Virus record (IMG/VR): IMGVR_UViG_2667527792_000007
Source of the DNA: a virus
Taxonomy: Duplodnaviria > Heunggongvirae > Uroviricota > Caudoviricetes
Length of the DNA stretch: 2,978 nt
Direction: 5' to 3' (one strand)
Shown: one piece after another, positions 1 through 2,978 of the stretch
Layout of the letters: the number at the start of each line of letters is the position of its first letter
Numbering within the stretch: position 1 is the stretch's first letter
The notes under the pieces: generated by a model
Database searches by the model: none
The model's input: the letters and a program-made list of their open reading frames with translations, nothing else
What the model was told of the DNA's origin: nothing
Position numbers and translations under genes: made by a program

Positions 1-915
1 GTGGCGCAGCTTAATGGTGTGGGTGAGAATCACTGGAGCGCGGCAATTTTAAAACGTGCGCTGGCGAATGACTCGGCATGGCACCGTTTAAGTGAGAAAG
101 AGTTCGCCCATCTGCAAACGTTGTTACCCAAACCACCGGCACATCATCCGCATTATGCGTTTCGCTTTATCGATCTATTTGCCGGAATTGGCGGCATCCG
201 TCGCGGTTTTGAATCGATTGGTGGACAGTGCGTGTTTACCAGCGAATGGAACAAACATGCGGTACGCACTTATAAAGCCAACCATTATTGCGACCCGGCG
301 ACGCATCATTTTAATGAGGATATCCGCGACATCACCCTCAGCCATCAAGAAGGCGTGAGTGATGAGGCGGCGGCGGAACATATTCGTCAACACATTCCTG
401 AACACGATGTTTTACTGGCCGGTTTCCCTTGTCAGCCATTTTCGCTGGCTGGCGTATCGAAAAAGAACTCGCTCGGGCGGGCGCACGGTTTTGCCTGCGA
501 TACCCAGGGCACGCTGTTCTTTGATGTGGTGCGCATTATCGACGCGCGTCGTCCGGCGATGTTTGTGCTCGAAAACGTCAAAAACCTGAAAAGTCACGAC
601 CAGGGTAAAACGTTCCGCATCATCATGCAGACGCTGGACGAACTGGGCTATGACGTGGCTGATGCAGAAGATAACGGGCCGGACGATCCGAAAATCATCG
701 ACGGCAAACATTTTCTGCCGCAGCACCGTGAACGCATCGTGCTGGTGGGTTTTCGTCGCGATCTGAATCTGAAAGCCGATTTTACTCTGCGTGATATCAG
801 CAAATGTTTCCCTGCACAGCGAGTGACGCTGGCGCAGCTGCTGGACCCGATGGTCGAGGCGAAATATATCCTGACGAAAGTTTCCTGTAATGGAAGATGG
901 GAAATATGTCGATAA
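1..915 (+). CDS. dcm: DNA-cytosine methyltransferase Dcm, N-terminal/catalytic fragment; Dcm homology ends at ~nt 876, followed by a 12-codon foreign tail ([12 protein letters not shown]) and TAA at 913-915. Probably a non-functional, pseudogene-like remnant.
   Basis: ORF 1..915 translation closely matches E. coli Dcm as recalled. Motif [11 protein letters not shown] at nt 166-195, motif [10 protein letters not shown] with catalytic Cys codon TGT at 430-432, motif VI ENV at 571-579. The GTG at nt 1 encodes an internal Val (..[13 protein letters not shown]..), so the true start lies upstream of the window. The remaining ~150-160 C-terminal residues of Dcm (472 aa as recalled) are absent. Confidence 0.9.
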
Positions 916-982
916 ATGGGCAATACGAACGACGGCAATGATTGCCAGAGAACTTGGTTAACAGAACAACAAAGCTGCCTGA
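878..982 (+). pseudogene. ral: 3' remnant of lambda ral (restriction alleviation protein), lacking start and N-terminal ~33 codons; in-frame TAA at 959-961 before the expected stop at 980-982
   Basis: Frame 2 from nt 881 reads [32 protein letters not shown], matching the C-terminus of lambda Ral as recalled (..[36 protein letters not shown], 66 aa). Upstream in this frame there is a stop at 872-874 and no Ral N-terminus. Position relative to ea10 matches lambda gene order. Confidence 0.6.
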
Positions 983-1026
983 TAGTGGCCTTTATTTTTG
1001 GCATAAATAACAGAATAAACACTGCA

Positions 1027-1058
1027 CTGTGTATTCATTCCAACGAGTGAATACACGG
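1027..1058. repeat. Inverted repeat in the ral-ea10 spacer: 9-bp perfect arms GTGTATTCA (1029-1037) and TGAATACAC (1048-1056), 10-nt loop; function unknown
   Basis: Read directly from the sequence. No T-run follows on the + strand, so it is not a classical intrinsic terminator in that direction. Confidence 0.5.
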
Positions 1059-1118
1059 AGCAATGTCGCTCGTAACTAAACAGGAGCCGACTTGTTCTGA
1101 TTATTGGAAATCTTCTTT

Positions 1119-1145
1119 GCCCTCCAGTGTGAGGGCGATTTTTTA
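1119..1145 (+). terminator. Intrinsic terminator-like hairpin upstream of ea10 (lambda tL2-cluster-like): GCCCTC-CAGTGT-GAGGGC followed by GATTTTTTAT
   Basis: Perfect 6-bp GC-rich stem (1119-1124 / 1131-1136), 6-nt loop, then a T6 run at 1139-1144. Location matches the terminator cluster between ral and ea10 as recalled. Confidence 0.6.
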
Positions 1146-1150
1146 TCTAT

Positions 1151-1155
1151 GAGGA
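1151..1155 (+). promoter_or_regulatory. Shine-Dalgarno (GAGGA) for ea10
   Basis: GAGGA lies 9 nt upstream of the ATG at 1165. Confidence 0.6.
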
Positions 1156-1164
1156 TATGAACAG

Positions 1165-1533
1165 ATGTCAAACATCAAAAAATACATCATTGATTACGAC
1201 TGGAAAGCATCAATAGAAATTGAAATCGACCATGACGTAATGACAGAGGAAAAACTTCACCAGATTAATAATTTCTGGTCAGACTCTGAATACCGACTCA
1301 ATAAACACGGCTCTGTATTAAATGCTGTATTAATCATGCTGGCGCAACATGCTCTGCTTATAGCAATTTCAAGCGACTTAAATGCATATGGTGTTGTGTG
1401 TGAGTTCGACTGGAATGATGGAAATGGTCAGGAAGGATGGCCTCCAATGGATGGTAGCGAAGGAATAAGAATTACCGATATCGATACATCAGGAATATTT
1501 GATTCAGATGATATGACTATCAAAGCCGCCTGA
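1165..1533 (+). CDS. ea10: Lambda Ea10 protein (early-left operon protein, annotated ssb-like; function poorly defined), 122 aa
   Basis: ORF 1165..1533 (MSNIKKYIIDYDWKASIEIEIDHD...MTIKAA) matches lambda Ea10 as recalled in length and sequence. SD GAGGA upstream; the 72-nt spacer to cIII matches lambda. Confidence 0.9.
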   Translation: MSNIKKYIIDYDWKASIEIEIDHDVMTEEKLHQINNFWSDSEYRLNKHGSVLNAVLIMLAQHALLIAISSDLNAYGVVCEFDWNDGNGQEGWPPMDGSEGIRITDIDTSGIFDSDDMTIKAA

Positions 1534-1556
1534 GCGCGGCGTTACCGCATACCAAT

Positions 1557-1580
1557 AACGCTTCACTCGAGGCGTTTTTC
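1557..1580 (+). terminator. Intrinsic terminator-like hairpin between ea10 and cIII (lambda tL3-like)
   Basis: 7-bp stem ACGCUUC (1558-1564) / GAGGCGU (1569-1575) with one G-U pair, 4-nt loop ACUC, followed by UUUU (1576-1579). Confidence 0.5.
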
Positions 1581-1593
1581 GTTATGTATAAAT

Positions 1594-1599
1594 AAGGAG
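1594..1599 (+). promoter_or_regulatory. Shine-Dalgarno (AAGGAG) of the cIII translation initiation region
   Basis: AAGGAG lies 6 nt upstream of the cIII ATG at 1606. Confidence 0.65.
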
Positions 1600-1605
1600 C
1601 ACACC

Positions 1606-1770
1606 ATGCAATATGCCATTGCAGGGTGGCCTGTTGCTGGCTGCCCTTCCGAATCTTTACTTGAACGAATCACCCGTAAATTACGTGACGGATGGAAACG
1701 CCTTATCGACATACTTAATCAGCCAGGAGTCCCAAAAAATGGATCAAACACTTATGGCTATCCAGACTAA
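1606..1770 (+). CDS. cIII: Lambda CIII, 54 aa (inhibitor of host FtsH/HflB protease, stabilises CII)
   Basis: Not in the ORF track because it is short. Manual translation from ATG 1606 gives [54 protein letters not shown], stop TAA 1768-1770, matching lambda CIII as recalled. Strong SD upstream. Confidence 0.9.
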   Translation: MQYAIAGWPVAGCPSESLLERITRKLRDGWKRLIDILNQPGVPKNGSNTYGYPD

Positions 1771-1882
1771 ATTCACTATCGCCACTTTTATTGGCGATGA
1801 AAAGATGTTTCGTGAGGCCGTCGACGCTTATAAAAAATGGATATTAATACTGAAACTGAGATCAAGCAAAAGCATTCACTAA
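1739..1882 (+). CDS. kil: Lambda Kil, 47 aa (host-killing protein that blocks FtsZ-dependent cell division)
   Basis: ATG at 1739 in the frame of ORF 1613..1882 gives [54 protein letters not shown] at 1725-1729. Overlaps cIII by 32 nt and gam by 46 nt, as in lambda. Confidence 0.85.
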
Positions 1883-2253
1883 CCCCCTTTCCTGTTTTCC
1901 TAATCAGCCCGGCATTTCGCGGGCGATATTTTCACAGCTATTTCAGGAGTTCAGCCATGAACGCTTATTACATTCAGGATCGTCTTGAGGCTCAGAGCTG
2001 GACGCGTCACTACCAGCAGCTCGCCCGTGAAGAGAAAGAGGCAGAACTGGCAGACGACATGGAAAAAAGCCTGCCCCAGCACCTGTTTGAATCGCTATGC
2101 ATCGATCATTTGCAACGCCACGGGGCCAGCAAAAAAGCCATTACCCGTGCGTTTGATGACGATGTTGAGTTTCAGGAGCGCATGGCAGAACACATCCGGT
2201 ACATGGTTGAAACCATTGCTCACCACCAGGTTGATATTGATTCAGAGGTATAA
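1837..2253 (+). CDS. gam: Lambda Gam (RecBCD inhibitor); long form 138 aa from ATG 1837, short GamS form (98 aa) from internal ATG 1957
   Basis: ORF 1837..2253 ([15 protein letters not shown]...[15 protein letters not shown]...[10 protein letters not shown]) matches lambda Gam as recalled. Internal SD AGGAG at 1945-1949 precedes ATG 1957-1959. The 5-nt gap to bet matches lambda. Confidence 0.95.
1945..1949 (+). promoter_or_regulatory. Internal Shine-Dalgarno (AGGAG) for the GamS start at 1957
   Basis: AGGAG lies 7 nt upstream of the in-frame ATG at 1957-1959 (MNAYYIQ...). Confidence 0.6.
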
Positions 2254-2258
2254 AACGG

Positions 2259-2978
2259 ATGAGTACAGCACTCGCAACGCTGGCTGGGAAGCTGGCTGAA
2301 CGTGTCGGCATGGATTCTGTCGACCCACAGGAACTGATCACCACTCTTCGCCAGACGGCATTTAAAGGTGATGCCAGCGATGCGCAGTTCATCGCATTGT
2401 TGATCGTCGCCAACCAGTACGGCCTTAATCCGTGGACGAAAGAAATTTACGCCTTCCCTGACAAGCAGAACGGCATCGTTCCGGTGGTGGGCGTTGATGG
2501 CTGGTCCCGTATCATCAATGAAAACCAGCAGTTTGATGGCATGGACTTTGAGCAGGACAATGAATCATGTACATGCCGGATTTACCGCAAGGACCGTAAT
2601 CATCCGATCTGCGTTACCGAGTGGATGGATGAATGCCGCCGCGAACCATTCAAAACCCGCGAAGGCAGAGAAATCACCGGACCGTGGCAGTCGCATCCCA
2701 AACGGATGTTACGGCATAAAGCCATGATTCAGTGTGCCCGTCTGGCCTTCGGATTTGCTGGTATCTATGACAAGGATGAAGCCGAGCGCATTGTCGAAAA
2801 TACTGCATACACTGCAGAACGTCAGCCGGAACGCGACATCACTCCGGTTAACGATGAAACCATGCAGGAGATTAACACTCTGCTGATCGCCCTGGATAAA
2901 ACATGGGATGACGACTTATTGCCGCTCTGTTCCCAGATATTTCGCCGCGACATTCGCGCATCCAGATCATTCTTATAG
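2259..2978 (+). CDS. bet: Lambda Bet (Red-beta single-strand annealing protein), C-terminally truncated: residues 1-235 lambda-like, then RSFL and TAG; 239 aa versus 261 aa in lambda
   Basis: ORF 2259..2978 (MSTALATLAGKLAERVGMDSVDPQELITTLRQ...QIFRRDIRAS) matches lambda Bet as recalled up to ..RDIRAS. Lambda continues SELTQAEAVKALGFLKQKAAEQKVAA, whereas the window continues RSFL then stop at 2976-2978. Confidence 0.9.
   Translation: MSTALATLAGKLAERVGMDSVDPQELITTLRQTAFKGDASDAQFIALLIVANQYGLNPWTKEIYAFPDKQNGIVPVVGVDGWSRIINENQQFDGMDFEQDNESCTCRIYRKDRNHPICVTEWMDECRREPFKTREGREITGPWQSHPKRMLRHKAMIQCARLAFGFAGIYDKDEAERIVENTAYTAERQPERDITPVNDETMQEINTLLIALDKTWDDDLLPLCSQIFRRDIRASRSFL

Follow-up and report, generated by a model that had tools for sequence, protein, structure and literature searches.

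A 2.1 kb early-left block of a natural lambda-like prophage adjoining a truncated Escherichia coli dcm gene

Composition of the window

The window (the whole stretch of DNA analysed here, 2,978 nt) is, by sequence comparison, a 2.1 kb early-left (Red/kil/cIII) block of a natural lambda-like prophage plus a truncated Escherichia coli dcm gene, the two meeting at a non-homologous junction. The comparisons below demonstrate what each part is, that the allele is a natural one, how the left junction reads and which genes are truncated; both junctions are known from this one sequence. The features are as follows.

1..876, + strand: dcm fragment (DNA-cytosine methyltransferase), gene nt 100-975, codons 34-325 of 472
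1..915, + strand: truncated-dcm open reading frame (ORF), running out of frame into ral DNA (ORF list)
870..880, + strand: dcm/ral junction zone (three-way comparison of dcm, ral and the window)
878..961, + strand: 3' remnant of ral (antirestriction), approximately codons 33-59 (Pfam Ral profile positions 34-59 of 66)
1117..1148, + strand: terminator-like hairpin and T-run in the ral-ea10 interval (consensus scan)
1165..1533, + strand: ea10 (DUF2528), intact, 122 aa (Pfam DUF2528, E = 1.8e-47)
1557..1586, + strand: second terminator-like hairpin and T-run, in the ea10-cIII interval (consensus scan)
1593..1651, + strand: cIII mRNA thermoregulator element (Rfam RF01804 Lambda_thermo)
1606..1770, + strand: cIII (FtsH inhibitor), intact, 54 aa (Pfam Lambda_CIII)
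1739..1882, + strand: kil (cell-division inhibitor peptide), intact, 47 aa (Pfam Lambda_Kil)
1837..2253, + strand: gam (RecBCD inhibitor), intact, 138 aa (Pfam Gam, E = 3.9e-63)
2259..2962, + strand: bet (RecT-family single-strand annealing protein), truncated, codons 1-234 of 261 (Pfam RecT)
2963..2978, + strand: foreign 16-nt tail (CAGATCATTCTTATAG), unrelated to bet of lambda, SfI or CUPS03

The dcm fragment and the left junction

The dcm portion is 100% identical over 876 nt to the annotated dcm of many E. coli, including O26 and O103 strains and strain 7/2; identity is 98.3% to dcm of K-12 (15 mismatches) and 98.6% to that of strain CUPS03 (12 mismatches). The 5' 99 nt of the gene lie outside the window. 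An active Dcm has a complete methylase domain, with its C-terminal target-recognition region and motifs; here the gene of 1419 nt breaks off at nt 975, and the Pfam DNA_methylase match covers only profile positions 1-194 of 324, so that the N-terminal part of the C5-methylase domain is retained and the C-terminal third is lacking. Because of this loss, a real junction would make Dcm deficiency of the source strain probable, and Vsr deficiency possible. Either deficiency would affect the restriction and methylation behaviour of the strain's DNA.

The match to dcm stops exactly at 876. At the junction dcm reads ..TATCCTGACGCCGG, ral reads ..AAGCCTGAAGAAATGTTTCC and the window reads ..TATCCTGACGAAA-GTTTCC, which defines a CCTGA(N)G microhomology of 5-7 nt with one T of ral missing. 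The earlier note had bounded the phage block at 877-2962; position 2962 is the last bet-derived base and 2963-2978 are foreign, but the left border is the junction zone 870-880 and not a sharp edge at 877. Frame analysis places ral in frame +1 relative to dcm, and the dcm ORF gains 12 foreign codons from ral DNA before its stop.

This arrangement was absent from every collection searched. The 28-mer across the left junction has no match in GTDB representatives, IMG/VR or JGI metagenomes, and the junction region has none among phages, where no record has dcm beside ral. No place in 5426 complete E. coli genomes covers at least 80% of the whole window, and plasmids were also negative. The exact protein encoded by the Dcm'-'Ral fusion ORF is not on record, and a literature search combining dcm with lambdoid gene names returned nothing relevant.

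The phage block compared with lambda

The block constitutes an early-left module by its ORFs and its Pfam and Rfam matches: ral, ea10, cIII, kil, gam and bet follow one another on a single strand with lambda-type overlaps, and every phage gene matches its profile (Ral, DUF2528, Lambda_CIII, Lambda_Kil, Gam and RecT). Megablast aligns window positions 877-2962 with lambda J02459 as one collinear piece, the complement of 32107-34193 (100% query cover, 98.7% identity). The earlier note's reading of the block as internal to a pL operon of lambda type, for which the complement of approximately 32.1-34.2 kb of lambda had been predicted, is thus borne out; so is its placing of both ends inside genes (ral and bet), with which the alignment agrees. 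The overlaps (cIII/kil 32 nt, kil/gam 46 nt) and spacers (ea10-cIII 72 nt, gam-bet 5 nt) that it had called lambda-type match the lambda annotation.

Column by column, 880-2962 differs from lambda by 27 substitutions and 0 indels: 18 silent changes, 3 replacements in Gam, 1 nonsense change in ral and 5 non-coding changes. Substitution density is higher in bet (2.1%) than in ea10 (0.3%), and no significant mosaic breakpoint was detected (max-chi-square permutation, p ~0.14), as the earlier note had expected. Ea10, CIII, Kil and residues 1-234 of Bet are identical to lambda in amino acid sequence, so that the claim of residue-for-residue lambda proteins holds for these; it fails for Gam, which carries A56T, G78S and S101A, a natural allele. 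In bet, all 15 nucleotide differences are silent. Judging from the 18 silent changes, together with the wholly silent differences in bet, the divergence from lambda is that of natural evolution under purifying selection, not of laboratory passage.

The window shares with the lambda pL operon its gene order, overlaps, spacers, absence of indels and cIII thermoregulator RNA. The last of these (RF01804 Lambda_thermo) scores 88.5 bits (gathering score 50), matches over its full length (1-59), and spans the ribosome-binding site and start codon of cIII. The differences, beyond the substitutions and the Gam replacements, are that ral ends at codon 59, at a TAA replacing lambda codon 60 (AAA); that bet is truncated; that pL, nutL, N and exo are missing; and that the block has dcm as its neighbour instead of the rest of a phage genome. 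In the lambda annotation, the early-left control elements (pL/oL, nutL and N) are upstream of ral; in the window they are absent, and dcm occupies the DNA 5' of ral. The hairpin at 1117-1148, a stem of 8 pairs (5 of them GC) ahead of TTTTTTAT, is presumably the tL2 region of lambda.

Relatives among wild prophages

The closest relatives of the block are wild prophages. A prophage of E. coli CUPS03 (NZ_CP180690.1, 3131584-3133666) is 100.0% identical to the segment over 2083 nt; its BLAST match begins at window position 870, with 1 mismatch and 1 gap. By this comparison the exact allele is already known, being present in a sequenced wild prophage. Flanked by ybhB and ybhC, the CUPS03 prophage occupies lambda attB and carries int, xis, exo, N, a repressor gene and tail genes. 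Lambda attB and dcm are ~1.2 Mb apart, in the same orientation. The prophage of GCA_014417645.1 differs from window positions 870-2962 by 2 mismatches and 1 gap. Both prophages share with the window the rare Gam allele and a 59-aa Ral; unlike the window, which keeps only an internal 2.1 kb beside dcm, they are whole prophages with repressor, N, exo, xis, int, late genes and an att site. In the assembly collection, just 2 contigs encode the window's exact Gam protein. One has an intact prophage beside a gene of the pectinesterase family (annotated as ybhC in CUPS03); the other is listed as being in a similar place. A close relative of CUPS03 was considered as the source strain and rejected, since the dcm alleles differ at 12 of 876 sites.

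The Shigella phage SfI (JX509734), a serotype-converting phage of Shigella flexneri, is 99.4% identical to the segment and thus closer than lambda (98.7%), while ev243 and phi458 are each 99.1% identical. SfI is collinear with the window in the early-left region and has the identical ral stop codon, but it differs at ~12 positions, including a 1-nt indel at 1145, and is an intact phage. The T at 959 that creates the ral stop is common to SfI and CUPS03, in both of which Ral is annotated as 59 aa, and is absent from lambda.

The earlier note had supposed that natural lambdoid prophages are divergent in this region, which is incorrect: at least 80% of the block is covered in 1316 of 5426 complete E. 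coli genomes, full-length matches among the E. coli genomes listed are ~98-99% identical, and the 40 complete genomes among the matches listed are all at 98.9-99.9%. The ~98% identity it had proposed for telling lambda from wild relatives is too low, because the wild prophages listed are themselves ~98-99% identical to the block. Identity to lambda at this level is therefore the norm for wild E. coli prophages and not a sign of laboratory contamination or engineering, which only near-100% identity to J02459 would suggest.

Its view of the segment as lambda proper, descended from a laboratory strain, accordingly has to be given up. Descent from laboratory lambda, or from an engineered lambda/Red cassette in the chromosome, would account for the 98.7% collinear match, for four of five proteins being identical and for both segment ends lying inside genes. 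Laboratory derivatives are, however, nearly 100% identical to J02459, and the same 27 substitutions separate the window from lambda and from the listed laboratory records (J02459, NC_001416, DE3, imm21, imm434 and others), each of which scores 98.7% and 3698 bits, while the wild CUPS03 prophage is 100.0% identical. The laboratory marker alleles (66-aa Ral; Gam A56, G78 and S101) are absent, the Gam allele and ral stop codon being of wild-phage type, and the host dcm is not the K-12 allele. Standard Red cassettes consist of gam-bet-exo, without ral, ea10, cIII or kil; the window has no exo, and its bet is truncated.

The right end and the 16-nt tail

All database matches of bet stop at 2962, the last bet-derived base, and the tail appends RSFL and a TAG stop to the truncated protein, which has lost its C-terminal 27 residues. 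The 28-mer across the right junction has no match in GTDB representatives, IMG/VR or JGI metagenomes, and the exact truncated Bet is not on record. With up to 2-3 mismatches allowed, no copy of the tail was found in or beside the CUPS03 prophage, around dcm in strains 7/2, CUPS03 and K-12, or in ~125 kb of K-12 loci containing IS1, 2, 3, 4, 5, 30, 150 and 186 and IS600/IS911 fragments. An IS insertion in bet was considered as the cause of the right end: the 16 nt match neither end of IS1, 2, 3, 4, 5, 30, 150 or 186, nor one genuine terminus each of IS600 and IS911, nor anything in loci containing IS26, IS6100, IS200C, an ISVsa5 fragment or TnAs3. In IMG/VR it has only 9 matches, which are unrelated and due to chance; two of these were compared with E. 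coli genomes, without a match. Within the window, no repeat of the tail exceeds an 8-mer. A Sau3AI-type ligation was rejected: the tail's GATC is set in from the junction by 2 nt, and bet lacks the site at that position.

Origin of the arrangement

The segment is an ordinary prophage remnant, its genes are the textbook lambda early-left set, already known, and its overall importance is small. An integrase-inserted prophage has attL/attR ends and an integrase; the window contains neither an att core nor int. Because both ends are non-att junctions inside genes, arrival by illegitimate recombination or deletion, as the earlier note had proposed, is favoured over the action of integrase.

On balance, we consider it likely that a lambdoid prophage of the CUPS03 type, circulating in nature, contributed a piece that was illegitimately joined to dcm, leaving an inert, recently truncated remnant in a Dcm-defective strain. 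The source would be an E. coli (or Shigella) with the dcm allele found in O26/O103 strains. Microhomology would have mediated an illegitimate event that linked dcm, at codon 325, to a point midway in ral, and a second event would have cut bet after codon 234; the outcome would be a promoterless 2.1 kb block, 'ral-ea10-cIII-kil-gam-bet'. We infer that the truncation event was recent, because the 2083 nt show no difference from a living prophage and every internal ORF is intact. Against this origin, no simple deletion can bring dcm next to ral if the prophage sat at attB; either a more complicated course of events or a prophage inserted elsewhere has to be assumed. Also counting against it are the absence of the junctions from all collections searched and the 16-nt tail, for which no source was found.

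The same two observations bear on the alternative that survives best, although we regard it as unlikely: that the joining of dcm to prophage DNA is an artefact, whether the two came from a single genome or from two E. coli sequenced together, and the junctions exist in no cell. A chimeric read, template-switching during amplification and a mis-join are possible causes. The parts are 100% identical to different wild genomes (dcm to that of, for example, strain 7/2, and the phage block to CUPS03, whose own dcm is 12 sites off), and the tail may be a third unrelated piece. The window starts with GTG and ends with TAG; if it was cut at called-gene boundaries, dcm may break just upstream as well, giving a 1-2 kb patchwork. 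However, a de Bruijn mis-join needs a shared k-mer of tens of bases, and the 5-7 nt microhomology with loss of 1 nt is unlike k-mer graph mis-joins; biological illegitimate recombination therefore fits better. The phage block is also horizontally mobile, so phage and host alleles matching different genomes are to be expected in nature, and prophage remnants with non-att junctions are commonplace.

It is quite improbable, in our judgement, that dcm suffered a chromosomal break and that end-joining sealed it with 2.1 kb of resident prophage DNA as filler, which would make the source a natural Dcm-null strain in which gam/kil/cIII might be read through from the dcm promoter. If so, the window would document the capture of a prophage fragment by microhomology end-joining in wild E. 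coli.

Still harder to credit is a domesticated cassette, in which ea10-cIII-kil-gam would be read from the dcm promoter, giving low-level constitutive Gam and/or CIII and Kil, and kept by selection. The phage genes are co-oriented with dcm with no divergent gene between, and neither the four internal ORFs nor the cIII thermoregulator RNA is damaged, but recency accounts for this intactness, as not one base differs from a live prophage. Read-through would meet two terminator-like hairpins, the window has no N, and Kil and Gam are harmful under constitutive expression; moreover, the arrangement occurs in no other genome, giving no sign of retention or spread. The laboratory or engineered origin weighed above is the least credible, and we dismiss it. 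A specialised-transducing phage of the lambda bio/gal type was rejected on geometry: the part of the pL operon that bio-type junctions retain is the N-proximal side, whereas the window has the N-distal side.

Functional state of the remnant

We infer that the remnant would be functionally inert, because the window lacks pL, nutL, N and exo, both terminator-like hairpins lie between the dcm frame and cIII/kil/gam, and Bet is without its C-terminal 27 residues. A functional Red system has a full-length 261-aa bet product and exo; here bet is cut after codon 234, and exo is lacking. The cryptic lambdoid remnants of E. coli K-12 (Rac, DLP12 and Qin), which we take to be decayed lambda-like pieces left after deletions and normally silent, offer a likeness; unlike the window, they are presumably old and divergent and still at their integration sites, with recognisable att/int ends. 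The window remnant differs from them in having two non-att ends, in disrupting a host gene and in showing no decay relative to a living prophage.

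Organization of the Window and Its Phage Genes

The window has three parts: a fragment of the E. coli DNA-cytosine methylase gene dcm (1–876), a phage segment (877/880–2962), and a short tail (2963–2978). The phage segment corresponds in a single collinear piece to the complement of lambda J02459 32107–34193 (megablast; coverage 100%, identity 98.7%), the interval that the earlier note had predicted (~32.1–34.2 kb). The following features were identified.

Features of the phage segment
ea10: 1165–1533; ORF, Pfam DUF2528; protein identical to lambda Ea10
cIII thermoregulator RNA, complete: 1593–1651, overlapping the cIII start; Rfam RF01804, 88.5 bits
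cIII: 1606–1770; ORF, Pfam Lambda_CIII; protein identical to lambda CIII
kil: 1739–1882; ORF, Pfam Lambda_Kil; protein identical to lambda Kil
gam: 1837–2253; ORF, Pfam Gam; A56T, G78S, and S101A relative to lambda
bet: from 2259, homology to 2962; ORF, Pfam RecT; residues 1–234 identical to lambda Bet

A ral remnant is likewise backed by a Pfam match (Ral), and the gene coordinates reproduce the spacers (72 and 5 nt) and overlaps (32 and 46 nt) of lambda. Collinearity, overlaps, spacers, and Pfam matches together confirm that this is a slice of a lambda-type early-left (pL) operon. Of the five proteins that the earlier note matched to lambda essentially residue for residue, Ea10, CIII, Kil, and Bet 1–234 are identical to it, and Gam has three replacements. 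The module itself is well known.

Relationship to Lambda and to Wild Prophages

The earlier note regarded the segment as lambda proper and suggested laboratory descent. In a four-way alignment, 880–2962 differs from lambda by 27 substitutions and no indels. All of the laboratory-lambda records listed (including J02459, NC_001416, DE3, and the imm21 and imm434 hybrids) gave the same result (98.7%, 3698 bits); genuine laboratory descendants thus score alike in this region, each 27 changes from the window. Wild phages come nearer: ev243 and phi458 match the segment at 99.1%, the Shigella flexneri serotype-converting phage SfI at 99.4%, and a prophage of CUPS03, a wild E. coli isolate (NZ_CP180690.1) from a carcass swab in Thailand, at 100.0% over all 2083 nt. 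The near-identical prophage of assembly GCA_014417645.1 differs from window positions 870–2962 by two mismatches and one gap. In a large assembly collection, a Gam identical to that of the window was found on only two contigs; one carries a CUPS03-like lambdoid prophage, and the other is listed as a similar place. Judged from these sequence comparisons, the segment is not lambda proper, and the provenance proposed for it was wrong.

That proposal had presumed that natural lambdoid prophages diverge in this region, which is false: at least 80% of the block is held by 1316 of 5426 complete E. coli genomes, with the listed full-length matches at ~98–99%, and part of it is present in 3758. Among the matches listed in a whole-window search (40 E. 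coli genomes), all are 98.9–99.9% identical, nearer than lambda. The limit of ~98% identity proposed for recognizing a natural remnant was not crossed (98.7%), yet such a limit cannot tell lambda from its wild relatives. A mosaic breakpoint check against lambda detected no single breakpoint (p ~0.14).

The 27 differences comprise 18 silent changes (including all 15 in bet), three Gam replacements, one nonsense change at ral codon 60 that is common to SfI and CUPS03, and five non-coding changes, a pattern that marks natural divergence under purifying selection. Neighboring genes contrast strikingly in constraint: every one of the 15 differences in bet (2259–2962) is silent, whereas all three in gam are protein-changing. 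At 959–961, ral has TAA where lambda codon 60 is AAA, giving a 59-aa Ral, as in SfI and CUPS03; the 66-aa Ral of lambda is the odd one out among the three sequences compared.

Several records from unrelated hosts are of lambda length and score like lambda against the window: MW057783.1 (Campylobacter phage CJLB-4, 48361 nt) and three “plasmids” of 48499–48502 nt, NZ_CP104294.1 (Stenotrophomonas), NZ_CP068597.1 (Paenibacillus), and NZ_CP082339.1 (Salmonella). Contaminating lambda control DNA, entered in the databases under phage or plasmid names, is the probable explanation.

The dcm Fragment

Window positions 1–876 are 100% identical to the annotated dcm of many wild E. coli, including O26 and O103 isolates and strain 7/2, and represent gene nt 100–975 (codons 34–325 of 472). 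The allele is of the O26/O103 type rather than that of K-12, from which it differs at 15 sites (98.3% identity); dcm of CUPS03 differs from it at 12. The Pfam match to the C5-methylase domain is limited to profile positions 1–194 of 324, so that Dcm lacks its C-terminal third; Dcm activity would probably be lost, leaving the source strain Dcm-deficient. The window does not include vsr, which overlaps dcm.

The first three nucleotides of the window are an in-frame GTG (dcm codon 34; 1–3), and the last three are the TAG that closes the truncated bet ORF (2976–2978), which suggests that the limits of the window were set by gene calling. In that case, with GTG-34 chosen over ATG-1 or ATG-20, a second interruption of dcm may lie less than ~40 nt upstream, within codons 20–34.

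Junctions and Origin

At the left junction, the dcm side reads ..TATCCTGACGCCGG, the ral side ..AAGCCTGAAGAAATGTTTCC, and the window itself ..TATCCTGACGAAA-GTTTCC. The motif CCTGA(N)G is common to dcm and ral, and one T of ral is missing 3 nt past the crossover. Because the fusion is out of frame, the dcm frame continues into ral for 12 extra codons before a stop at 913–915 (ORF 1–915). At the right junction, bet homology ends at 2962 in every comparison made, and the tail, CAGATCATTCTTATAG, is unrelated to bet, giving the truncated Bet a terminal RSFL and a stop. An att site is found at neither end of the phage segment, and the earlier preference for illegitimate recombination or deletion over integrase-mediated insertion is therefore sound.

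No locus covering at least 80% of the window was found in the 5426 complete E. coli genomes, and searches of GTDB representatives, IMG/VR, JGI metagenomes, plasmids, and phage records found neither junction; no exact protein is on record for the truncated Bet or the dcm–ral fusion ORF. The tail matches no terminus of IS1, 2, 3, 4, 5, 30, 150, or 186, nor one genuine terminus each of IS600 and IS911. It is absent from the CUPS03 prophage, from the dcm neighborhoods examined, and from other examined loci containing IS26, IS6100, IS200C, an ISVsa5 fragment, or TnAs3; nine matches in IMG/VR were judged to be chance.

The window holds the remnant of a natural lambdoid prophage adjoining a truncated dcm, or else it is a chimera that includes such a remnant. 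Artificial joining of dcm and prophage DNA is the main rival to a biological junction, and is favored by the uniqueness of both junctions to this window; we consider it unlikely, since short microhomology with loss of 1 nt is what illegitimate joining in a cell typically leaves, unlike mis-joins in a k-mer graph. For a biological origin, a parent prophage at lambda attB would put ~1.2 Mb between dcm and ral, with both genes pointing the same way, making a simple deletion impossible; the parent would instead have been integrated elsewhere, or the fragment captured.

Functional Potential

From its gene content, the phage fragment most likely does nothing. The position upstream of ral that pL, nutL, and N occupy in lambda is taken by dcm in the window. 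The dcm promoter would be the sole possible source of transcription, and its transcripts would meet terminator-like hairpins at 1117–1148 and 1557–1586 without window-encoded N. The window has no exo, and the last 27 residues of Bet are missing. That ea10, cIII, kil, and gam are still intact is explained by recency, given that the segment does not differ at all from a living prophage.

The CUPS03 Prophage and the dcm Region

Unlike the fragment, the matching element of CUPS03 is an entire lambdoid prophage at the classical lambda attB, flanked by ybhB and ybhC, with int, xis, exo, N, a repressor gene, and tail genes. Two stretches of it (~5485–6925 and ~23800–25992 within NZ_CP180690.1 3092000–3141999) stand out: near one end it carries adjacent SMODS nucleotidyltransferase and SLATT genes, a CBASS-like defense cargo, and its major capsid and large terminase genes are pseudogenized, so that it is itself probably defective.

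The dcm–fli neighborhood is rearrangement-prone. The CUPS03 chromosome has a multiresistance island of ~30 kb that separates fliE from yedK, ~18 kb from dcm (NZ_CP180690.1 ~1874000–1905000); the island contains mer, a class 1 integron with dfrA17-aadA5, mph(A), tet(B), and catA1, with IS1 copies at its borders.
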